Source: a virus
Strand: one strand, 5' to 3'
Length of the DNA: 64,000 bases
Virus record (IMG/VR): IMGVR_UViG_3300046373_000172
Location: 23,476 to 87,475 of that record
How positions within the stretch are numbered: position 1 is the stretch's first letter; each line of letters opens with the position of its first letter. A program made the translations under genes and the position numbers. Under the pieces are notes generated by a model. The model was not told the origin of the DNA, made no database searches, and saw only the letters and a program-made list of their open reading frames with translations. Shown here piece by piece: positions 2,627 through 56,167 of this stretch.

Positions 2627-5600
2627 ATGCCTAATTTCTACTACTACCAGAAGCAGGGTGGCGAGAACGTCTGGCTGCCGTCGCCGGTGGCGGATCGTGT
2701 GCGGCTCGAAGACGAGGATCGGCCGGAGTTCATCTCCGTGCTGGCCGTGTCGCGCATCATCGACGACGAGATCACCTACGAAGACAAGCTCAAGCTGACC
2801 TATGCCGGCCCGCTGTACTTCGACTGGGACTCGTCCGACGAGCAGCTGGTGATCGAGAAGGTGAACCAGTTCCTGGACCACCTGGTCACGCTGCGGGTCA
2901 ACCTGGAGATGTGCAAGCTGTTCGCCACGGGCGGGCGGGGTTACCACTTGGAGATCCCGCAGTCGATGCTGATGGACAAGATCCCGCCCAAGGGTGTGCT
3001 GGGCCTGCCTTACATCTACCGTGAGATGGCCTACGAGATGGCGGTCGACACCTTGGACTTGCGTATCTACTCGGGGCTGAAGGGCCGCATGTGGCGCGTG
3101 GCGAATGTGCGCCGGGACAACGGCCGCTACAAGGTGCCTATCCGTGTTTCGGAGATGCGCGCCATGACGCCGGAGATGTGCCGCGAACTGACCTCTTCGC
3201 CACGCCGGGTGGTCGAAGTGGTCAACGCCGCCTACTCGCCCGAGCTGGCCATGATCTACGAGACGGGCAAGCAGAAGGTCGAAGACATCACGCTCAAGCG
3301 CAAGCGCTTCAAGCCTGACCCGGAAGCGGCCAAGCGGGCGCACTCCGAGTCGATCCAGGCGGCGATGGCCGGCTTTGGCCTGAAGGATGGCGCCGGCTTC
3401 CACCCGATCGGCATGCAACTTGCCCAAGCCGCCTGCACGGCGGGCCTGTCGATGGAGCAGTTCATCACCGAGTGCGCCGGCTTGATCGCCAACCACCGCG
3501 GCGACGGCGAGCGTTACAGCACACCGAAGAAGCGCGAGGACGAACTGCGCCGGATGCACCGCTACATGGACGGCAACGCCTGCTACGAGTTCTCGATCGG
3601 CGCCATCAAGTCGCTGCTGGCCCACCCGGCGCCCGACCTGGACGGCGTGCCGATCTCGGCGGAGGAGCTGAAAGAGGTGATCGCTGCGGCGGACACCTCG
3701 GCCGGAGAGGAAGACGAGTATGGCGACGTGGCGCGCGGCATCACGCTGTCCAAGTACGGCGTGTACAAGTGGGTCGAGGGGATCAGCAAGCGGGTCTGCG
3801 CGGTGTCGTTCGACACCTCGGACCTGCTGCTGTCGTCGGAGAGTTCGACCATCATCGGCTACTCGTCGACCGTGCTGGTCAACGGGCGTTCGGTCGGGCG
3901 CCAGGTGTTGGAGACCGAGATCTTCAGCGCGCTCAATCCGTTCAACCGGTTCGCACAAAAATATGGCCACACCTTCGTGGGCAATGACCAAGACGTGCGC
4001 GTGGCGATGATGCGCTTCGTCGAGGCGGCAAAGAAAAGAGGCAGTCAAATGTACGTGGTAAAACGAGAAGGCCTGGACGTGCTCAGCGTGCCGGATCACC
4101 CGGACGAATTCTTCCGCTCCCCCTTCGTGGTGTGGGCCGAGGCGTCCGAAGTGTGGACGTCGGAAGAACTGGCCGAGCGCGGTATGAAGATGAAGTTCCT
4201 GGGGCACCCCGACCAGCGCGGCGTGATGCGCACCGACCTGTCCCTGGCGCCGTCGCTGCCGTCCTGGCTCAAGGAACCTGGCAACAAGGAGCTGATGCGC
4301 CTGACGCTCGAGAACCTGATGTCGTGCCAGAAGGCGGACTTGATGGGCAAGCTGATCGGCTGGTACGTGTCCTGCTTCTGGAAGCAGATCTTCAACCACA
4401 CCTATTCCAAGTTCCCGCTGCTGCACGTGAACGGCGCAGCGGGGGTGGGGAAATGCTTGGGCAGGGGCACCCCGGTGTTGCTGGCCTGCGGCCAAACCTG
4501 CAACGTCGAAGACATTCGGACTGGGGACCTGCTTATGGCGCCCGACGGAGGTGTGCGCACGGTACTGTCTACGACCCAGGGCTTTGACCGCATGTTCCGC
4601 GTCTCCCAGTGGTTTGAAGGCAAGCCGCTGGAAACCTACACCGTGAATGCTGCGCACATCTTGAGCCTGCGGCATTACCGCACTGGTGAGGTGTTGAACA
4701 CCAACGTCGAAGATTTCCTCGACATTGACGGGCCAGAGGACAATATCTACCTGGGGTGGCAGGTCCCTGGGATTTTGGAGAAGGACTTGACCCCTCGGCT
4801 GGTCGAGATCGAGATTGAAGAGATGCCGGCAGACGATTACTACGGCTTCACGATCGACGGCGATCACCTGTTCCTGTTGGGCGACTTCACGGTCACCCAC
4901 AACACGGAGACGAACGAACTACTTGGCTCCTTCTTCTTCTACAAGCAGGAGGTGCACACGATGTCGCCGTCGTCGACCATCTTCGCCTTAAACCAGCACT
5001 TGGCTGCGTCGGCGTCGATTCCCCTGATCGTCGACGAATACAAGCCGGCGGAGATGAAGGCCGAGCTGCACAACCGGATGAAGCAGATGTTCCGGGACGC
5101 CTACAACCAGCGCCAGATTTCACGCGGCGGCGGTACCCGGGAGTCGGACGACTTCCGCACGCTGCAGCAAGTCGAGATGGCCGCGCCGCTGGTGTTTATC
5201 GCGGAAGCGGCCGAGGACGAGGCGGCGGTGATGGAGCGCGTCGTCTTGGCCACCTTCACCCGTCCGCCGGCGATCATCGGGCTGAAGAACCTGGCCAAGT
5301 TCCAGCAGGTGCGCCAGCACCGCCACTTGCTTGGCATCCTTGGGCAGCACATGGCCGCCAAGATCGTGCGCACCTTGACCTTCGACGGTTTCCGCGCAGA
5401 GTTCGACGCCCTGTATGAGGTGGCGCAGAATACCTACATGCTGACCGAGAAGGACTTGACCAACACCACGCTGACGGACACGGAGCGCATGAACAAGCAG
5501 AACGCCAAGGAGCGCTCGGTGTTCAACCACACGGTGGCCAAGTACGGCTTCCAGCAGTTCCGCGCGCTGGTCAATGAGATCGTCGACGACGAAAGCCTGG

Positions 5601-6016
5601 ACCCGTTGATGGCGACGCTGGAAGACGGCATCTACTCCCGCCTGTCGGACCTGAACGCAGCCACCACGCCGGAGCACATCAAGGTGCTGGCCGAACTGGC
5701 GCAGATGAGCCACCACGTGCACAACGACCACGCCGACGCGATCAACTTAGGTACCGAATACGCCTTCGTGCAGCACGGTGTCCAGGAGTGCATCGAGATC
5801 GCTGTGCGCCCGGCATATGCCAAGTACCGCTCGTACTGCCGCAGCATCGGCAGCCCGGCGCTGTTCACGTCGCCGCAGGCCTTCATGCTGTCGCTGAAGG
5901 ACTCGCCGGCCTTCGTCAAAGAGGGTACCGGCCAGACCCTGCTGGTGCCCAAGGTGTTCACGCTGAACAACGAGGAACTGGCGAAATACGGCGTGGATCC
6001 GTTCAAGAATCGCTAG
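2627..6016 (+). CDS. primase/P-loop helicase fusion containing an intein
   Basis: AEP-like motifs LYFDWD and TGGRGYHL; Walker A GAAGVGK(T) split by intein; Walker B LIVDEYK. Confidence 0.85.
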   Translation: MPNFYYYQKQGGENVWLPSPVADRVRLEDEDRPEFISVLAVSRIIDDEITYEDKLKLTYAGPLYFDWDSSDEQLVIEKVNQFLDHLVTLRVNLEMCKLFATGGRGYHLEIPQSMLMDKIPPKGVLGLPYIYREMAYEMAVDTLDLRIYSGLKGRMWRVANVRRDNGRYKVPIRVSEMRAMTPEMCRELTSSPRRVVEVVNAAYSPELAMIYETGKQKVEDITLKRKRFKPDPEAAKRAHSESIQAAMAGFGLKDGAGFHPIGMQLAQAACTAGLSMEQFITECAGLIANHRGDGERYSTPKKREDELRRMHRYMDGNACYEFSIGAIKSLLAHPAPDLDGVPISAEELKEVIAAADTSAGEEDEYGDVARGITLSKYGVYKWVEGISKRVCAVSFDTSDLLLSSESSTIIGYSSTVLVNGRSVGRQVLETEIFSALNPFNRFAQKYGHTFVGNDQDVRVAMMRFVEAAKKRGSQMYVVKREGLDVLSVPDHPDEFFRSPFVVWAEASEVWTSEELAERGMKMKFLGHPDQRGVMRTDLSLAPSLPSWLKEPGNKELMRLTLENLMSCQKADLMGKLIGWYVSCFWKQIFNHTYSKFPLLHVNGAAGVGKCLGRGTPVLLACGQTCNVEDIRTGDLLMAPDGGVRTVLSTTQGFDRMFRVSQWFEGKPLETYTVNAAHILSLRHYRTGEVLNTNVEDFLDIDGPEDNIYLGWQVPGILEKDLTPRLVEIEIEEMPADDYYGFTIDGDHLFLLGDFTVTHNTETNELLGSFFFYKQEVHTMSPSSTIFALNQHLAASASIPLIVDEYKPAEMKAELHNRMKQMFRDAYNQRQISRGGGTRESDDFRTLQQVEMAAPLVFIAEAAEDEAAVMERVVLATFTRPPAIIGLKNLAKFQQVRQHRHLLGILGQHMAAKIVRTLTFDGFRAEFDALYEVAQNTYMLTEKDLTNTTLTDTERMNKQNAKERSVFNHTVAKYGFQQFRALVNEIVDDESLDPLMATLEDGIYSRLSDLNAATTPEHIKVLAELAQMSHHVHNDHADAINLGTEYAFVQHGVQECIEIAVRPAYAKYRSYCRSIGSPALFTSPQAFMLSLKDSPAFVKEGTGQTLLVPKVFTLNNEELAKYGVDPFKNR
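4454..4903 (+). mobile_element. 150-aa mini-intein in helicase Walker A
   Basis: starts CLGRGTPVLL, block B VNAAHIL, ends HLFLLGDFTVTHN followed by Thr; too short for a homing endonuclease. Confidence 0.92.
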
Positions 6017-48369: not shown

Positions 48370-50103
48370 TTAACGCATGCTGCCGTAGACCATTGTCTCC
48401 TTCCGGGTGGCTACTTTGATGCGGTGCGCAATGCTGATATTGGTCAGCGGGAACTGGATACTGGCGGTTGGCATCAGCAGGGTGGCGATGTTCAAATAGC
48501 CCAAGGCGTGGTGGTAGTGGTCCTCGTCGTTTGGCTTTTTGACCCAGGTGTAGCGGCCGTCGCCGAAGGCGTCCTGGACCAAGGTGCGCTTCATGTCAAG
48601 CATCTGGTTGACGAACAGCGTGTCTTCCTGCTCGCTCTGGGCCTGCCACAGGACCTGCTTGGTCTTGAACAGCTTCATCAGTTCGTCGAAGCCGACGTCG
48701 CGGTTGAGCTTGGCGATCAGCAGGGGCAGCTTGCCTTCCGCCTCGTTCTGCTCCCGGGTCACGATGTCGAACAGCGCCACGTTGCGCGTGGTGTTGTAGC
48801 GTCCGGCGTACATGTTCAGGTCGTCTTTTTGCAGGTCCAGGATCAAGTCGGTGTAGGGCTGGTGATCCCAGACGCTGGTCAGCACGCGGTATTCCTGCTT
48901 GAGCTTGGCGGAACGCTCGCGCAGCATGGGCAGCGCCACCCGCTCGCGGTGTACCACGATCAGCATGCCTTCGTTGGTGCGGCGGCCGATCGTGATGTGG
49001 CACACGGCGCCCAAGTCGACGCCCATGGCGTGCAGATCGGACGACAGCAGGCCGCCGGCGGTGTACTTGCACTGCTCGATGTCTTCCCGGGTCAGCGTCT
49101 CACTCGTTTCGCTGCTGGTCTCGCCCAGGGTCTGGTTGCAGAACTCGCCCCAAGGGAACTTGGTGGACTCCTCGACGATGCGGTGCACTGGCACGATGTT
49201 CGGCACTGAGAACGGCGTCACATAGTAGCCGTGCGCGTTCAGCTGGTCGTTCGGATTTTCGAAGACCCACTCGCGGTGCTCGAACTGCAAGCTGGGGGCG
49301 CGTCCACAGTGCGGGCAGCAGACGTACGCCTCCTTGTAGCGGATCGTCATCAGGTTGTGCGCGGAGATTTCGTTCTTCGGCTTGTCGTAGCCGGGGATGA
49401 CGACGTGCTCGTGGTAGGTCGGGGCGAAGTGATGGTTGCACTTGTCGCACTTGACCAGGTGGCGCTTGCGCTTGCTCTCCTCCATGGCGGCAGCGATGCC
49501 GACGCCGTTGAAGGTCGGGGTGCCGAACTTGCGGGTGAACTGCCAGATCGAGTGCTTCAGACGCGACTGGTACTGCTTCAGGGTGAACGGGTCGCTGCGG
49601 TCGACCTCGTCGTGGATCAACATGTCGGCCGGCACGGACAAGGCTTGGGTGGTGCCGCGCGTGCCGCGGCCGTGCAGCAGGTTGCCGCCGATGTCCTTGG
49701 TCTGGGTGTTGTTGATCTCCTGGCGCACCACCTCGGCCAAGTCTGGGCTGTCGTTGATGACCGGATCGATCCGGGTCTGGAAGAACTTGGCGCAATCCTG
49801 CGCGCCCGGCATCGTCAGGATGCAGTCGAAGTACGGAATCACGCGGCAGATGGCCAAGGCGTAGCGCGCCATGACTTCCGACATGCCGACCTGCGCGCAT
49901 TTCTGGACATTCACGTTGACGTGCGTGTCCGAGATGATGTCCTTTTGGTACTCGTGGTCCTTGAACGAGTACAGGTCGCCGTTCAGGTAGGTCTTTTCTT
50001 CGATGTAGCGGACCACGTCTTGCAGGTTGTAGGTGCCAAAACAGGCCGTGTGCAAGCGCAAAATGTGCTCCTGCACCGCTTTATCGTCGTGAATGAACTC
50101 CAT
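48370..50103 (-). CDS. terL: terminase large subunit (lambda gpA-like)
   Basis: KCAQVGMSE, HDEVD, GTPT, CDKC/CPHC, GVDLG, DHYHHA. Confidence 0.92.
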   Translation of the reverse strand: MEFIHDDKAVQEHILRLHTACFGTYNLQDVVRYIEEKTYLNGDLYSFKDHEYQKDIISDTHVNVNVQKCAQVGMSEVMARYALAICRVIPYFDCILTMPGAQDCAKFFQTRIDPVINDSPDLAEVVRQEINNTQTKDIGGNLLHGRGTRGTTQALSVPADMLIHDEVDRSDPFTLKQYQSRLKHSIWQFTRKFGTPTFNGVGIAAAMEESKRKRHLVKCDKCNHHFAPTYHEHVVIPGYDKPKNEISAHNLMTIRYKEAYVCCPHCGRAPSLQFEHREWVFENPNDQLNAHGYYVTPFSVPNIVPVHRIVEESTKFPWGEFCNQTLGETSSETSETLTREDIEQCKYTAGGLLSSDLHAMGVDLGAVCHITIGRRTNEGMLIVVHRERVALPMLRERSAKLKQEYRVLTSVWDHQPYTDLILDLQKDDLNMYAGRYNTTRNVALFDIVTREQNEAEGKLPLLIAKLNRDVGFDELMKLFKTKQVLWQAQSEQEDTLFVNQMLDMKRTLVQDAFGDGRYTWVKKPNDEDHYHHALGYLNIATLLMPTASIQFPLTNISIAHRIKVATRKETMVYGSMR

Positions 50104-50535: not shown

Positions 50536-50831
50536 TTCAGTCGCTCCAGGGTGCGGTGGATGGTCTTCACGCTGCAGTGGGCGGCAGAAGCGGCTTGTTC
50601 GGGGGTCATGGTGGTGGCGACCAGCGCCTGGTACTCCTTGCGGGCGTGGTAGAGCGCGCTGGCCTTCTGGCGTTCGCTGGGTGCTTTGACGATCCCAAGG
50701 TCTTTCAGGGTCCTGGACAGGTGCGCTTCCGAGACGCCGAGGCGCTTGGCGACGTCCCTACTGGTGACTTTCCTTTCGGCTAAGTCGTCCAGATAGGGAG
50801 TCACGGTCTGTTTGAGCGTCGGCTTTTTCAT
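50517..50831 (-). CDS. HTH DNA-binding protein with two HTH-like segments
   Basis: SRDVAKRLGVSEAHLSR and PEQAASAAHCSVKTIHR. Confidence 0.75.
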   Translation of the reverse strand: MKKPTLKQTVTPYLDDLAERKVTSRDVAKRLGVSEAHLSRTLKDLGIVKAPSERQKASALYHARKEYQALVATTMTPEQAASAAHCSVKTIHRTLERLKCKTTA

Positions 50832-50837
50832 TTCCGG

Positions 50838-50866
50838 ATTCTGGCACGGAAGTTGCCTGTGGTCAA
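50838..50866 (-). promoter_or_regulatory. late promoter copy 1
   Basis: TTGACC-ACAGGCAACTTCCGTGC-CAGAAT. Confidence 0.75.
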
Positions 50867-50885
50867 ATTTGCCGTGGTTTGCTGT

Positions 50886-51001
50886 GGCCTGTGGATAACT
50901 CTATGGAAAATTTGGAAAAATTTTTTCTTGGGCGAGTGTTGGCCGTGTTTGGCCACGTTTGCGATGCGGCCTGTGGATAACCCTATGGAAAATTTGGAAA
51001 A
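50886..51001 (+). repeat. 34-bp direct repeat (x2), each with a perfect DnaA box
   Basis: GGCCTGTGGATAACYCTATGGAAAATTTGGAAAA at 50886 and 50968; TGTGGATAA at 50890 and 50972. Confidence 0.85.
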
Positions 51002-51114
51002 TATTTTGGGAGCCTGGGCGCGGCGCGCGTCGCCCGTACTGCAAATAACCCTATACGTCAAACAGCGCCGCCCGTACCGCCATCCGTATAACCGGCCGCA
51101 TAACTGCCGCCAAT

Positions 51115-51130
51115 TGTTCCACGTGGAACA
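51115..51130. promoter_or_regulatory. parS-type palindrome
   Basis: TGTTCCACGTGGAACA, perfect 16-bp palindrome. Confidence 0.85.
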
Positions 51131-51176
51131 TAACCGGAATCGGCCGTGCCGGTTGCGTTGCCGGTTGCGTGCGCAT

Positions 51177-51192
51177 TGTTCCACGTGGAACA
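51177..51192. promoter_or_regulatory. parS-type palindrome
   Basis: second identical TGTTCCACGTGGAACA. Confidence 0.85.
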
Positions 51193-51468
51193 AATGACGC
51201 TGCCGGTTACGCTGCCGTTTGCATTGCCGTTTGCATTGCCGTTTGGCCAGCTCGGCACGATGTTGTCATTATGACCACTATACTCGAACGCGTATAGAAA
51301 TGCAAATCGGTATAATCGAACTAGTATTGGTATTCTCACTTTCAACCGACTACAATAGATACATCGGTTGAGTGAATACAGCCGGTTCCCTGGTAACGCG
51401 GGGTTTGCGGGATCGCGCATGGTGCGCGCCCGCTGGGCATCTGTGCCTGTTCATTTGGAGATTATGCC

Positions 51469-52323
51469 ATGAAATCCGCTATTCTCGGCGCACCTGCTGC
51501 GCCTGCATCCCAGCTTGCCGCTATGTCGGGCGTGTCTGTCGCCGCATCGCAAGCTATCGCCTTGCCAACGTCCCAAGCTGGGCAGTACGTCCGCGCTGAT
51601 GTCAAAGGCGGCGACGCACAGCACGCATTCCGCGTCGGTATCATCCGTACGGCCGTGCTGGAATCGCTGAAAGGAAACGGCGTCCCGATGGCGGAAGCGC
51701 TGGATCAAGCCGAAGGCAAACGCACGATCGCCGTTTGCTACCGCGCCGGCATCGCCGCCATTGGTGAGCTGGCCCGGCTTGATCGCGCTGGCGACGTGTT
51801 CGCCGACGTGGTCGAAAACGAGATCGTCACGGGCCGCAAGCTGCTGAGCGCTGGCAAGTGGGCCGATGCGGACAATAAAGCCGTGCGCGCCGATGCGGAA
51901 ACGCTGGCCGATGCCGCTGCCGTGCGCTTTGACAGTGCGTTTACTACGTGCGCCAAAGACTTGAAAGAGCAGGCCAAGGCGGATAAGGCCAGCAAAGCGG
52001 CCGAAAAAGCGGCCGCCGATGCGCTGGCTGTTGCGCTGGTGAAAGCGGCGAATGATGCGCCCTTGAACACGGCAGGCGACGATGCCGGCTCGGATGCGGG
52101 CGCTGGCGCTGGTTCGATTGATCCTGATACGCTGGCTAGCGCTGCGGATCAAGCCTCTGTCATGCGCGCCGCTGCGCTGGCCACAGTACTTGACGCGATC
52201 AAGCAGGGCATGCTGTCCGGGCCTGAATTGGAAGCGATCAACGCCGCATTGGATAGCGTCGCATTGGGTATCGCGTACTTGCCTGTAACCGAAGCGGCCG
52301 CACCTGAGCTGGCTGTCCACTAG
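51469..52323 (+). CDS. Ala-rich early protein of unknown function
   Basis: GGAGA RBS; 284 aa; first gene of the rightward early block. Confidence 0.8.
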   Translation: MKSAILGAPAAPASQLAAMSGVSVAASQAIALPTSQAGQYVRADVKGGDAQHAFRVGIIRTAVLESLKGNGVPMAEALDQAEGKRTIAVCYRAGIAAIGELARLDRAGDVFADVVENEIVTGRKLLSAGKWADADNKAVRADAETLADAAAVRFDSAFTTCAKDLKEQAKADKASKAAEKAAADALAVALVKAANDAPLNTAGDDAGSDAGAGAGSIDPDTLASAADQASVMRAAALATVLDAIKQGMLSGPELEAINAALDSVALGIAYLPVTEAAAPELAVH

Positions 52324-53190
52324 ACCACATATCAAGCGCCTTGCTCTACAGGGCGCTTGAGTATGTTGTCTGTAACACAGCGTTTCATCCGATTGCCATA
52401 ACGCGCGGCGCGTTGCTCTAAAGGGGCGTGCCACTAATCGGAATGCTAGCCGTACTGTCTAGAGCATCGCCTTGCGCGCCGCTTTAGCTGTACAGCACAC
52501 CTGTTCTTTATCCGCCCGGCGCAACGCGCCCGGCCACAATTGAGACTCTATCCGGCCCTACCGGAAGAACCCATGCATGTATGACGTGATTGACGCGCAT
52601 CGTGCCGCTTAGGCGGCATGCCGCGTTGTTAGGCACATCAAGCATGGTGCGGTTTGGACAGTAGCAGGATAGATGCGTTTTAGTAGAAACGCTAACTTAC
52701 TACTCTTGCCGATTCAGGATGACGAACGATGATATCGGCTTGTATGCACAATCTAGGCTTGAATGTAAGCCATCTCTACCGGGTTTGGATGACGGTACAG
52801 GTTCGCAAAAGGGGCACAGGTAACGCCGAACGGCGCCCTTGTGATTACGCAATAGCAGAACAAGAGAAAACGGATTGCACAGACCATCGTGAAAATCGCC
52901 AAAAGGCGCCCGGCCAAACGGGCATACAAATAACGCTTACCCAAGCGGCAAGAGGAAAGGTTAGAGCAAATGTAGGTAGACCGTACGGGAGTCGTCCGTA
53001 CGGCTATGACAACGGCCCGACAAGCCGTTAAGCGCCGGTTTCGGGGCGCATATACCGAACGATAGCAATGCCCTTCCATGCTTGAGGTATGGAAGGGCGG
53101 CAAATTAAAACGCATTCCGCGAGTGCTTTTTAATGTGCTGTATCTTCCGCCTGGCCTTTTTGGCTAGGCATTGCCACGTCCAAAAGGAGA
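52322..53190 (+). ncRNA. candidate large structured non-coding RNA (boundaries approximate)
   Basis: no credible ORF; many local and long-range helices, several with G-U pairs on this strand. Confidence 0.55.
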
Positions 53191-53196
53191 ATCACT

Positions 53197-53439
53197 ATGT
53201 CCAATCGTTGCACGTTCAATCTGTTCACGGCCGCGGAACGTTCGGCCAATTGGGAAGTCCGCAAGGGCGAAGATCGCCGCGCACTGCTGGCAATTATCTT
53301 CGAAGCGAATCACGCTTGCGTGCATCCGTTGAATCACAACTACGTTGCCGACATCAGCGACAAAGAGCGCCTTGAGTATTGGGCGCGCAGCAATGGCCTG
53401 TTGTCGTCGGCCGATGAGCGGACTTTGCGCGGATACTAA
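53197..53439 (+). CDS. early hypothetical protein
   Basis: AAGGAG RBS. Confidence 0.75.
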   Translation: MSNRCTFNLFTAAERSANWEVRKGEDRRALLAIIFEANHACVHPLNHNYVADISDKERLEYWARSNGLLSSADERTLRGY

Positions 53440-53574
53440 GCGCAATATCCGGTAATACATAACGCTTTTCACCCTGTACCGCCTTGGCGGTACTATCTTT
53501 TCAGCACCGCTGTATCCAAACCTATATAACGCCTGGCCAAGTGGTCGGGCATAGTCACGTCCGGAGAAAACATC

Positions 53575-53754
53575 ATGAGCAAAGCACAACACTATGAGCT
53601 GGCTGAGAAAATCCATGCTGCATCGGTTGCACGCTGCAATCGCATGCTGGCCATGCTCGACGGTCAGCAGCAAGCGGAAGCGATTCGCGCGTCGGTTGCG
53701 GCGCAGTTGGCGCTCGATGCCTTCATGGAATCGCTGGTGCATCGCCATGCGTGA
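53575..53754 (+). CDS. early hypothetical protein (59 aa, not in ORF track)
   Basis: GGAGA RBS; MSKAQHYELAEKIHAAS...HRHA. Confidence 0.65.
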   Translation: MSKAQHYELAEKIHAASVARCNRMLAMLDGQQQAEAIRASVAAQLALDAFMESLVHRHA

Positions 53755-53863
53755 ACTGGGCCGAATCCTCACCAACGGCGCGCTATTTTGGCTGTGGTTC
53801 GGCTATGCCGTTTGGGCCGCGCTTGAAGTCATCAACGTGCCTTGGGCCTTGTATGTCGGCTAG
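53747..53863 (+). CDS. 38-aa membrane peptide
   Basis: MRELGRILTNGALFWLWFGYAVWAALEVINVPWALYVG; overlaps upstream stop. Confidence 0.5.
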   Translation: MRELGRILTNGALFWLWFGYAVWAALEVINVPWALYVG

Positions 53864-54211: not shown

Positions 54212-54736
54212 TCATAAGGGCCAAAGCCGACCATGTTTGATGCTAGCGATCGTCGAAACAGTTGTTGAAAAACTAGCTGCGATCTGCTTCACCGAAACAC
54301 CGTCAAAAATCTGCTGGCGTATAAGCGCAACGATTTCAGGTGTTAGACGCTTGGCCCGTTTTGGGTTGTTGGCACCGTGAAACCTTCCTGTCTTGGCCGT
54401 ATGCTGTTGATTCTCTTTTGGCGTGACCCATTCAAGATTGTTGACGTGGTTATTAGCCTTATCGAAGTCTTTATGGTTGACCTGCGGCCGGGTGTCGGCC
54501 GGCAGGAAGTGCAAAGCTACAAGTCGGTGAATTGCGTGTTTGCGCACTACGCCTTCGCGTGACAAGCAAACATAGCAGTAACCTTGAGCATCTCGAACTT
54601 GAGTAGGATTGCGACCAGCAACCGCTCGACTTCCGCCTGGACTTTTAACCCTTCGAGAAAGACTCTTGACATTGCCGAAGTTACTGACAATGTATAAGCC
54701 GTGAAAACCTTGGATAGACGCCCAAACTTCAAGCAT
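54212..54736 (-). CDS. NUMOD4-HNH homing endonuclease with C-terminal HTH
   Basis: EVWASIQGFHGLYIVSNFGNVKS; IHRLVA..F...VNHKDFDKANNHVNNLEW; AGGAG RBS. Confidence 0.9.
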   Translation of the reverse strand: MLEVWASIQGFHGLYIVSNFGNVKSLSRRVKSPGGSRAVAGRNPTQVRDAQGYCYVCLSREGVVRKHAIHRLVALHFLPADTRPQVNHKDFDKANNHVNNLEWVTPKENQQHTAKTGRFHGANNPKRAKRLTPEIVALIRQQIFDGVSVKQIAASFSTTVSTIASIKHGRLWPL

Positions 54737-55424
54737 TAGGTTCTCCTGGAAACACGGGAAAGCACTGCTGCGTAGTCGAGTCAAACTTCATATGGGTCGC
54801 GCCGTCCAAAAAGGCTTGACACCTAACCTTATAATCGTCAGCAGGACAAATTGCTGGCGGCACCGAAACCCATTGATTCGCGTGCCAATACCAAAGACGG
54901 CCCGGAACGTCGGCCGGCGGCTTTCTAACCGGCTTCTTGATGACAAGTCGCGGCGTACGCATCGGCCGATGATAAGCATCAGCGGGCCGCCCCAAGTCGC
55001 GCGCCCGTTCGAGTTCTAGCACGTGCTGCACTTCGAGTTCCATTTCCCGCCAGACGCATGCGGCCCAATCTTGTCGTGCGACTTCGATCGACGGGAAATA
55101 GACGCCCGGCGACAAGATGTGATGAAAACCGCGTGCACAAGCCTTGCAGTTGAAGCGGCGCCGCGCGATGCGGATCGGCACCAAGTTGCGCACGGAAAAG
55201 TCAAACGGATCCCCGTTCAGTTGGGTAATCTGAAACATCGGAGCTGATCCGTAGAGCAAGACCCAAGCCAAGTCCGGCCCTTGGTATAGCTGGCCGTCGA
55301 CATGGGCCACGAGTCGGTTTTGCACGACCGAAGTCAGTAGTTTTAGTGTGCCGTCCGCCTTAATGCGGTAGAGCTGCGTGTGTAAGAGTCGAAAATTTTG
55401 TGTCACCAGTGCGGTGTTGATCAT
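54729..55424 (-). CDS. protein with degenerate HNH-like domain
   Basis: DLAWVLLYG..P...TQLNGDPFDFSVRNL follows HNH spacing but lacks the His/Asn residues. Confidence 0.55.
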   Translation of the reverse strand: MINTALVTQNFRLLHTQLYRIKADGTLKLLTSVVQNRLVAHVDGQLYQGPDLAWVLLYGSAPMFQITQLNGDPFDFSVRNLVPIRIARRRFNCKACARGFHHILSPGVYFPSIEVARQDWAACVWREMELEVQHVLELERARDLGRPADAYHRPMRTPRLVIKKPVRKPPADVPGRLWYWHANQWVSVPPAICPADDYKVRCQAFLDGATHMKFDSTTQQCFPVFPGEPNA

Positions 55425-55924
55425 GGGAAACTTTCTAAAGTTGGACATTTCTGCCAAAACTTGCGTAAAAAGATTTTAGCACAAGGTTCTCACCCAAGTC
55501 CACACGATCCCAAGTCGAAAAGCCCCTATATATAAGACAAACCTAGTAGATATCTCATTAGTATGGGGAGTTCTCATTTTCGTGTTCGAAACGCGCTTTT
55601 GACTTTTTGACTTTTTTTTTGTGTCAGTCCATTTTTTCTGTGGCGTGATTTTCCTTATTAGGCGATTTTCAAAAAGTGGCCCTTAATCATGCGATTCTCA
55701 CAGGTCGTCTGTCATGCCTTTCATGCAACCTTGGGCATGTGACAACACCGAAACAGTGTTTTCGTTACCCTGACGCAATGTTGTTTATTTTGGATGTCTA
55801 AAAGAGTATACATTACGTAAATGTTTCTTCTGTTACTACATATATTCTCACACCAAAAAACCTGTTACTAGTAGCATGACTTTCGCACTTACACGAACCC
55901 AAGCAACATACTATAGGAAGTGAG

Positions 55925-56167
55925 ATGTTTACATTTTTGAAAGAACTTGTCTTTCCGACACCGTCTGTACCAAAATTACTACGCTCTGCGCTCGAAGATA
56001 GCCAGCGCGAGTTGCTTTTGCTTGACATCCAGCAGCAGCACATGCTAGCCGAGGCTGAAAATTACTCCGCGGCAAGGTTGAAGCACGAAAACAGGGTAAA
56101 ACGACTGACTGACTCGCTTAAAAGGCTTGAGAATCAAGCACTTACCCGCACTGGTCCGGATGATTGA
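55925..56167 (+). CDS. helical hypothetical protein
   Basis: AGGAAG RBS; amphipathic coiled-coil sequence. Confidence 0.55.
   Translation: MFTFLKELVFPTPSVPKLLRSALEDSQRELLLLDIQQQHMLAEAENYSAARLKHENRVKRLTDSLKRLENQALTRTGPDD

Follow-up and report, generated by a model that had tools for sequence, protein, structure and literature searches.

The locus and its gene-free gap

The DNA analysed here (the window) is a stretch of 64,000 nucleotides (nt) of the IMG/VR virus record IMGVR_UViG_3300046373_000172; the record is 87,475 nt long and rated complete by CheckV, and the window comprises its bases 23476-87475. The window has a siphovirus-like gene set, including a tape-measure protein of 2823 amino acids (aa), a portal, a Pol I-type polymerase and a large terminase (TerL). 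Leftward late genes extend to about 50.8 kb, and beyond a divergent control region a rightward operon begins at 51469 with the gene of a 284-aa alanine-rich (Ala-rich) protein that stops at 52323. The next convincing gene is at 53197-53439, with a GGAGA ribosome-binding site ahead of it. The gap between these two genes (52322-53190) is the subject of this study: a preliminary description, made from the letters of the window, had proposed it to be a candidate for a large structured phage RNA on the plus strand, and all of the sequence motifs listed there were found in place.

The gap is non-coding, as that description had it. A codon-usage log-likelihood score, trained on 20 long genes of the same phage, is negative in all six frames between about 52300 and 53150 and clearly positive in the flanking genes at 51469-52323 and 53197-53439. 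In an alignment of six relatives, substitutions show no 3-periodicity in the RNA region (p=0.26), in contrast to the upstream gene (p=3e-12). The minimum free energy (MFE) of the stretch is -346.7 kcal/mol versus -294.2 +/- 10.3 kcal/mol for dinucleotide shuffles (z=-5.07), thus it folds better than chance; after regression on GC content, its residual of -49 kcal/mol is the most negative among 107 segments of 869 nt in the 64 kb. The MFE structure of the single sequence lacks some of the helices that are supported by covariation, for example TTGTATGC/GCATACAA.

Gene and gap are conserved in one lineage of uncultured phages

The TerL protein is at most 31% identical to any terminase of a cultured phage, and searches of IMG/VR with single flanking proteins or with TerL alone returned no loci. 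A protein search found the terminase family at 45-62% identity on contigs of 80-94 kb, and with an alignment of 42 terminases (A1), 53 IMG/VR loci were retrieved. Blastn and nhmmer searches against these 53 loci identified weak matches of window positions 52590-53046 to the loci L018 (E=2.4e-6) and L005 (E=9e-5), both of them syntenic, on the expected strand and about 2.6-3 kb upstream of TerL. Homologues of the Ala-rich protein (tblastn) form two subfamilies and have the same position in 20 TerL-related loci; the proteins of the window and of loci L003-L036 are 231-284 aa long and always encoded directly 5' of the RNA. In at least 15 related IMG/VR contigs and one fragment of a metagenome-assembled genome (MAG), about 650-800 nt without any gene come after the homologue.

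The 1 kb after the stop codons of the Ala-rich genes was aligned across the loci and is conserved even where two sequence blocks of the central domain (blocks 1 and 2, see below) are absent: it has hairpins that are conserved in position and vary in sequence, unpaired blocks and a highly conserved 3' part. The element of the relatives extends from 6-10 nt after the stop codon to a few bases before the Shine-Dalgarno (SD) sequence of the next gene. This next gene varies among relatives, while the upstream gene and the RNA persist.

The family has about 16-20 copies, all from metagenomic sequences and from one lineage of uncultured siphovirus-like phages of about 82-93 kb; the element is about 470 nt long without its central domain and 650-810 nt with it. 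All carriers within IMG/VR are phage contigs. A covariance model of the 3' domain (R1) found 13 relatives with E-values between 1e-13 and 1e-34, one of them newly, on a Sphingomonadaceae MAG fragment. The degenerate pattern of the 3' motif, made from the hairpins Pb and Pc, had 13 matches in IMG/VR, 12 in contigs already known via TerL, and 35 matches in 596 Gb of prokaryote genomes, of which only the Sphingomonadaceae MAG fragment is real. Patterns of block 1, alone or together with block 2, matched in viral, metagenome and genome contigs nothing but the known copies and chance or coding sequences (MNDEIG peptides). The parS-type palindrome in the control region presumably fits a host among the Proteobacteria, and the Sphingomonadaceae MAG copy as well as the distant terminases of beta-proteobacterial prophages likewise point to Proteobacteria.

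The copy in the window is a divergent member of this family. It is on the same strand as an Ala-rich homologue, follows it directly and fills the gap to the next gene; besides this synteny, its membership is based on a weak match to R1, which is the only match of this model in the window and at the expected place and strand, and on a central domain of type A. Two relatives, L018 and L008, carry the blocks of type A together with canonical 5' and 3' domains and thus link the window to the family. The 5' domain of the window was placed solely by the landmarks H1, CAUAACGC, CACAAUU and the AGUAGAAAC linker. In L005, R1 also has a weak match at the syntenic place and strand (E 0.2).

A three-domain architecture with covarying helices and a pseudoknot

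The features of the locus are listed in Table 1.

Table 1. Features of the window at and around the proposed RNA (positions are those of the window)
Feature	Position	Strand	Remarks
Large terminase (TerL), lambda GpA-type	48370-50103	-	
Divergent control region	50.85-51.47 kb		DnaA-box repeats, two identical palindromes, 12-nt iterons
Gene of the 284-aa Ala-rich protein, predicted all-helical	51469-52323	+	conserved; lies directly 5' of the RNA in every relative
Structured RNA, proposed extent about 810 nt	52324-53131	+	from stop codon to terminator-like hairpin; both ends putative
H1, GC-rich hairpin TCAAGCGCC..GGGCGCTTGA	52332-52360	+	9 nt after the stop codon
CAUAACGC motif	52387-52394	+	family motif CAyAACGC
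CACAAUU, window version of a family-wide unpaired block (UUUAACAAU / CCACAAUUG)	52535-52541	+	
Long irregular hairpin CCATGC..GTGCCGC-TTAG-GCGGCAT..GCATGG, last arm of 5' domain	52571-52647	+	plausible; in MFE and centroid structures
A-rich linker AGUAGAAAC between 5' and central domains	52682-52690	+	family CAGyAkAAAACG
5' strands of the two closing helices (CTAACTT, CTCTTGCCG)	52692-52711	+	pair with 52946-52964
Block 1, GACGAACGAUGAUAUCGG	52721-52738	+	near-invariant in type A; mini-hairpin CGAU-GAU-AUCG at 52727-52737
Px 5' strand, TTGTATGC	52740-52747	+	pairs with 52922-52929
Hairpin CCCG-GCCAAA-CGGG	52909-52922	+	just 5' of Px 3' strand
Px 3' strand GCATACAA, then block 2 CAAAUAACGC	52922-52936	+	
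3' strands of the closing helices (CGGCAAGAG, AGGTTAG)	52946-52964	+	
Pa hairpin CCGTACGG-GAGTCGT-CCGTACGG, first helix of 3' domain	52981-53003	+	aligned to Pa of model R1
Pc hairpin AACGGC-CCGACAA-GCCGTT	53011-53029	+	
Pd hairpin (GCGCC 53032-36 / GGCGC 53045-49) and H-type pseudoknot	53032-53059	+	loop UUCGG 53040-44 with CCGAA 53055-59
Pe, terminal hairpin GCCCTTCCATGC-TTGAG-GTATGGAAGGGC	53070-53098	+	Pe of other sequence in every relative
Terminator-like hairpin GCAUUCCGCGAGUGC, then UUUUU	53112-53131	+	possible 3' end of the window RNA; absent in relatives
Leader hairpin GCCTGGCC..GGCTAGGC and GGAGA site of gene 53197-53439	53149-53190	+	outside the conserved RNA

By sequence comparison, the 5' domain consists of covarying GC-rich hairpins and conserved unpaired blocks. 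RNAalifold predicts 56 pairs for ten 5' domains, 32 of them with compensatory changes; 90.5% of the cells are paired, versus 31-46% with the partners slid, and all five measures lie beyond all 500 shuffles. Double changes are found in 12 of the 15 pairs of hairpin H2. Hairpin H1 has counterparts of other sequence at the same place (AGCGCCC/GGGCGCT in L020, GATAGCGCCA/TGGCGCTATC in L018), and the relatives have the CAyAACGC motif as the loop of hairpin H4, 56-94 nt downstream of the stop codon, with four of the five stem pairs compensatory. The ACAA of the unpaired block is invariant in alignment A5, and the block is also present in L003, L005, L010, L015, L021 and L023; a sigma-70 promoter at the conserved UUUAACAAU block was rejected on inspection, as the spacing to any -35-like hexamer is wrong. 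At the place of the long irregular arm, the relatives have a long GC-rich hairpin (H7/H8), a likeness in position only. The helix 52453-63 / 52653-63, which the preliminary description had closing the first domain, is absent from the MFE structure, and the homologous segment of L005 is a local hairpin.

The central domain is multi-branched, and the stacked long-range helices that close it differ wholly in sequence between phages: CUCUUGCCG/CGGCAAGAG and CUAACUU/AGGUUAG in the window, GCAUAAUCC/GGAUUAUGC in L018, CAGCAAAC/GUUUGCUG in L003, GCGCGAUUGCA/UGCAAUCGCGU in L020 and GCGCAAUCA/UGAUUGCGU in L014. Strands of the same RNA pair over 8.8 base pairs (bp), versus 6.6 bp for strands of different RNAs, a difference reached by none of 5000 permutations. 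At least two versions of the interior exist that are unrelated to each other: type A, which carries blocks 1 and 2, and type B. Two blocks are near-invariant in the five distinct type-A sequences (window, L018, L003, L005 and L008, the last identical to L009), GAyrAACGAUGAkAUCGG (52721-38) and CArAUAACGC (52927-36), and block 1 lies 334-402 nt downstream of the end of the 231-284-aa gene on the same strand in all five loci. The helix Px just inside the blocks covaries (UUGUAUGC/GCAUACAA in the window, CUGUAUG/CAUACAG in L018, CUGCUAG/CUAGCAG in L005, CUGUC/GACAG in L003, UUGCG/CGCAA in L008) and the hairpin CCCG-GCCAAA-CGGG next to it has counterparts too (CCGG-CAAAA-CCGG in L018, GCGG-CCACA-CCGC in L003, UCCG-CCAAA-CGGA in L005, CCGG-CCACA-CCGG in L008).

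One relative lacks the central domain: L016:5221-5723 (minus strand) has the 5' and 3' domains only, and its 3' domain is found about 327 nt after the stop codon, compared to about 580 nt otherwise. L018 and L008 have the window-type blocks 1 and 2, yet their upstream protein and flanking RNA domains resemble those of the type-B phages L020, L019, L036, L014, L013 and L017. Type A is therefore found with both subfamilies of the upstream protein, indicating that the central domain is an exchanged module.

An alignment of twelve 3' domains (A3) supports four nested helices: Pa (UAGnA loop), Pb (4 bp, GAUGA loop), Pc (UUGGCA loop) and Pd; the loops of Pa, Pb and Pc are near-invariant in the family. 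In this domain, 90.5% of the cells are paired, versus 31-44% with the partners slid by 1-3 columns, and 11 of 22 pairs are compensatory, versus 5.3 +/- 1.5 in shuffles, none of 500 reaching the observed covariation. The loop of Pd forms a pseudoknot with a stretch 5-8 nt downstream of Pd: it has 5-9 bp in all 15 of 15 RNAs and is made from 12 distinct complementary pairs (UUUCCC/GGGAAA, UUUACCG/CGGUAAA, CCCUCCCC/GGGGAGGG and UCGCACAA/UUGUGCGG are examples; UUCGG/CCGAA in the window), with 6.3 bp within an RNA versus 4.3 bp across RNAs (0 of 5000 permutations). In the relatives, one more helix, Pf, surrounds Pe and covaries too (GUAAU/AUUAC, GAAAUA/UAUUUC, CAAUA/UAUUG, GGAAU/AUUCC; 0 of 5000 permutations). 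At the position of Pb, the window has CUAUGAC (53004-53010), thus Pb is missing or degenerate there. ATTAAAA/TTTTAAT flanks the terminator-like hairpin of the window.

Many of the helices in the preliminary description have covarying counterparts in relatives, namely the closing helices CTAACTT/AGGTTAG and CTCTTGCCG/CGGCAAGAG of its second domain, the inner helix TTGTATGC/GCATACAA (Px) and the hairpins CCGTACGG..CCGTACGG (Pa), AACGGC..GCCGTT (Pc) and GCCCTTCCATGC..GTATGGAAGGGC (Pe); the pseudoknot (53040-44/53055-59) and the conserved blocks (52721-38, 52927-36) were absent from it. Two simpler explanations of the hairpins were rejected: Pe is not an intrinsic terminator in the relatives, as its U-rich tail pairs with an AAUAC stretch as Pf, and an array of intrinsic terminators or a cluster of RNase III sites is ruled out by the covariation of the long-range closing helices and the pseudoknot.

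Two contigs end at Pe. A cos site or genome end within the element was ruled out for one of them, record G001, which has a 127-nt overlap of end and start and is a circular assembly. The other, G002 (the record of L015; 82.5 kb, rated complete and linear), ends at 82468 exactly at the 5' strand of Pe and its other end does not continue the Pe hairpin: this is either an assembly break or a real terminus.

Strand and RNA nature

In six full-length type-B sequences, G·U cells outnumber A·C cells by 112 to 20 on the gene (plus) strand, and the RNAalifold consensus has -236 kcal/mol on the plus strand versus -205 kcal/mol on the minus strand; 89 of the 199 predicted pairs have at least two Watson-Crick types. 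The G·U excess and the consensus energy both indicate that the functional strand is the gene strand. The preliminary description had argued for RNA from G-U pairs, which is weak with one sequence, and it is the family that bears the argument out. With homologues, covariation, a covarying pseudoknot and the G·U strand bias at hand, its proposal of a large plus-strand structured RNA stands, and the family is very probably a real structured RNA.

The RNA has no match among described classes

The window and eight related loci have no match to any of the 4,227 families of Rfam 15 at the family gathering thresholds; the families covered include GOLLD, ROOL, OLE, HEARO, raiA, RNase P, tmRNA, 6S, group I and II introns, ribozymes and riboswitches. 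Relaxed scans (E<=10) of the window and one canonical member returned nothing but noise from hairpins resembling microRNAs (miRNAs) or repetitive extragenic palindromes (REPs), far below threshold. ARAGORN detected no tRNA or tmRNA in the 64-kb window and eight relatives, in agreement with the preliminary description, which had recognised no tmRNA, RNase P, intron or hammerhead core, and blastn of the stretch against 50,697 GenBank phages found no match. A survey of IMG/VR 3.0 lists 8,495 short candidate RNAs from intergenic regions of uncultured phages, scored by covariation and 29-151 nt long, with a mean of 67 nt (PMC10690425). We found no other large survey of intergenic RNAs in IMG/VR, and this one reports no element of about 700 nt (PMC10690425); single hairpins of the new RNA may be among these 8,495 candidates. 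The family is thus likely to be distinct from any described RNA family.

The upstream Ala-rich protein

The Ala-rich protein has no match in Pfam, PHROG and the ESM Atlas and no fold match in the PDB. Among about 5.8 billion clustered proteins, only two distant homologues were found, both on contigs of about 2 kb. The AlphaFold2 model (predicted local distance difference test score, pLDDT, of 75) is all-helical, with an N-terminal helical bundle, a K/A/E-rich helix of about 60 residues and a small conserved C-terminal helical hairpin. By its adjacency alone, the protein is a candidate for a partner of the RNA.

Possible function and rival explanations

On balance, we lean towards a reading in which the stretch belongs to a family of large structured RNAs not described before and works as a folded particle. 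The size, the build from three domains, the pseudoknot and the near-invariant hairpin loops all argue for a particle. A leader of the downstream gene would fit less well, because the downstream gene is not conserved and the upstream gene is constant, and because the central domain can be dispensed with or exchanged. Given the lack of an internal promoter, and of a terminator in the relatives, the RNA is most likely made as part of an early transcript from upstream of the Ala-rich gene: transcription would probably start at an early promoter there, and the RNA would then probably act as a folded particle, which may be released from the early transcript by processing. Given an RNA, a scaffold or decoy that acts in trans would be the slightly favoured role, and it would bind a phage or host protein via the invariant loops. 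More tentatively, the particle could be a new ornate class of RNA, either in a ribonucleoprotein with the Ala-rich protein or in an RNA-only self-assembly of the GOLLD/ROOL kind, that serves early takeover or counter-defence and has the exchangeable central domain as its specificity module; we think this possible but rather doubtful.

Several observations weigh against the folded particle or against the place of the window copy in it. No sigma-70-like promoter was recognised inside the element in the window. In the relatives, no canonical terminator precedes the next gene, the structure stops 1-8 nt short of its SD and the U-rich tail is a strand of a helix; the RNA must therefore at least initially be part of the mRNA, and this fits a role in cis too. 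The window copy has kept Pa, Pc, Pd, the pseudoknot and Pe, and lacks Pb and Pf. Its match to R1 (52968-53089, plus strand) is weak, with 11.9 bits and an E-value of 0.64 over 1.29 Mb. Only five type-A sequences exist, thus the central and 5' domains of the window itself are modelled largely by analogy. As all sequences are kin, the shuffle controls overstate significance, a flaw from which the controls with slid partners are free. The reverse complement of the stretch folds as well (z=-5.24), hence energy alone shows neither RNA nature nor strand, for which the evidence comes from the relatives; G·T wobbles are tolerated in hairpins of single-stranded DNA. Finally, the RNA is known here from the genomes of uncultured phages alone.

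The main rival has the stretch acting in cis, as an intercistronic element or leader in the early operon that stays in the mRNA and controls the genes behind it, possibly by making RNA polymerase resistant to termination, by protecting the downstream mRNA from RNase E or by positioning ribosomes at the adjacent SD. The early position in a rightward operon from the divergent control region would suit such an element, and so would the missing internal sigma-70 promoter, the missing canonical terminator of the relatives and the fact that the structure fills their whole gap, with Pf 1-8 nt before the next SD. We nevertheless consider it unlikely. Bacterial and phage RNAs that regulate in cis seldom exceed about 300 nt, whereas this element has 650-800 nt and three domains; the gene that it would control is not conserved across the family, while the one upstream is; the central domain is swapped or lost; and in the window, about 95 nt with a terminator-like hairpin lie between Pe and the ribosome-binding site.

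The other rivals deny that the stretch is a new RNA, or an RNA at all. A strongly diverged representative of a described class (GOLLD, ROOL or a degenerate intron) that the covariance models miss is very unlikely: size and phage origin are like those of GOLLD and ROOL (PMC12286853; PMC5737381), but even at E<=10 the window and the canonical member gave only miRNA-like hairpin noise in Rfam, there are no tRNA genes nearby, the flanks have no interrupted gene, which an intron would need, and the motifs of the IMG/VR survey have 29-151 nt only. Action as single-stranded DNA, as a replication origin, primosome-assembly site or packaging site near the DnaA-box/parS/iteron region (50883-51250), is highly improbable. 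Such a role would draw on the distance of only about 1 kb to the origin-like DnaA boxes, palindromes and iterons, on the equal folding energy of both strands and on the tolerance of DNA hairpins to wobbles; however, known origins and cos or pac sites do not have a covarying pseudoknot or helices with spans of about 250 nt, the 112 to 20 asymmetry is on the transcribed strand of the operon, neither iterons nor an AT-rich unwinding element are found inside the element and the contig break of G001 inside the element is an assembly artefact, not a genome end. Unannotated small genes or a decayed gene are barely credible: there are ORFs (open reading frames) of 100 aa (52729-53031, plus strand) and 120 aa (52753-53115, minus strand), the former with AGGA 9 nt 5' of the ATG at 52729, but the codon-usage score is negative in every frame, the substitutions in the relatives are without 3-periodicity, and base pairing is conserved and the ORFs are not.

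Gene neighbourhood

The origin-like cluster (50883-51250) is situated between the late and early operons and has two 43-nt direct repeats, each with TGTGGATAA, two identical 18-nt palindromes (ATTGTTCCACGTGGAACA) and tandem 12-nt iterons of the TGCCGTTTGCAT type; the ORFs called over it (50828-51193 and 51058-51420) are probably spurious. Two small early genes in succession each have a GC-rich hairpin just ahead of the ribosome-binding site (53149-53169 and about 53531-53562); the two hairpins are similar and lie outside the conserved RNA. The early 89-aa protein at 53594-53863 (plus strand) has a sub-threshold match to Lambda_CIII (E 0.0026; 18.2 bits with a cut-off of 25.7). A homing-endonuclease gene with NUMOD4 and HNH_3 domains (54212-54784, minus strand; Pfam E 4e-11 and 2e-6) is antisense to the early genes, and the 1129-aa ORF at 2627-6016 (plus strand) has a Hom_end-associated Hint (intein) domain at residues 610-687 (Pfam E 1e-18). 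The G+C content falls sharply to 38-42% at 55350-56100 (about 58% elsewhere); this DNA is apparently intergenic, and the genes on its two sides have opposite orientations. An N4-like phage with hairpin promoters was ruled out, as the 2823-aa ORF encodes a tape-measure protein and not a virion RNA polymerase.

Comparison with known systems

To our knowledge, few large and intricate RNAs of bacteria and phages are known, namely the rRNAs, RNase P, group I and II introns, tmRNA, OLE, GOLLD, ROOL, HEARO and raiA, and each known class of large ornate RNA has opened new biochemistry. A further class, some 0.7 kb long and marked by clear covariation, near-invariant loops, a pseudoknot and a central domain built as a module, would lend itself readily to cryo-electron microscopy and to the identification of partners.

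For the cis-acting rival, the model would be the put RNAs of phage HK022 and other RNAs of processive antitermination: these are folded RNAs of phage early operons that act on the polymerase in cis. The put RNAs have about 70 nt and two hairpins and directly follow the early promoters, whereas the new element is ten times larger, comes after the first gene and contains a pseudoknot as well as a central domain that can be exchanged. RNA folds also matter for replication and packaging, as in the folded primer RNA II of ColE1 and the packaging RNA (pRNA) of phi29, the latter of about 170 nt. The phage studied here has a Pol I-type polymerase and, near the element, an origin-like region; however, there is no likeness to RNA II or pRNA in sequence or architecture, the relatives have no AT-rich origin at the 3' end, and nothing ties the new RNA to the portal or to the polymerase.

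The new RNA and the candidates of the IMG/VR 3.0 survey both emerged from a comparison of intergenic regions in uncultured phages and from covariation; the candidates have 29-151 nt (PMC10690425) and the new RNA has about 700 nt. A gap in a densely packed phage genome can thus be an RNA gene, and the link of this RNA with the first early gene of a phage lineage points to an under-sampling of RNA-based host takeover or regulation in uncultured phages.

GOLLD and ROOL often adjoin tRNA genes. The new RNA differs from them in this respect, with no tRNA in the 64-kb window or the eight loci, in having no match to their Rfam models and in being confined to one phage lineage. GOLLD and ROOL are RNAs of about 600-800 nt with several domains, covarying helices and pseudoknots, are borne by phages and prophages and have no known biochemical function (PMC5737381; PMC12286853); recent work has shown that they, like OLE, assemble into unprecedented complexes made of RNA only (PMC12286853). 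Like them, the new RNA is large (about 650-810 nt) and phage-borne and has three covarying domains and a pseudoknot, and GOLLD and ROOL are its nearest analogues, in kind rather than in sequence or structure.

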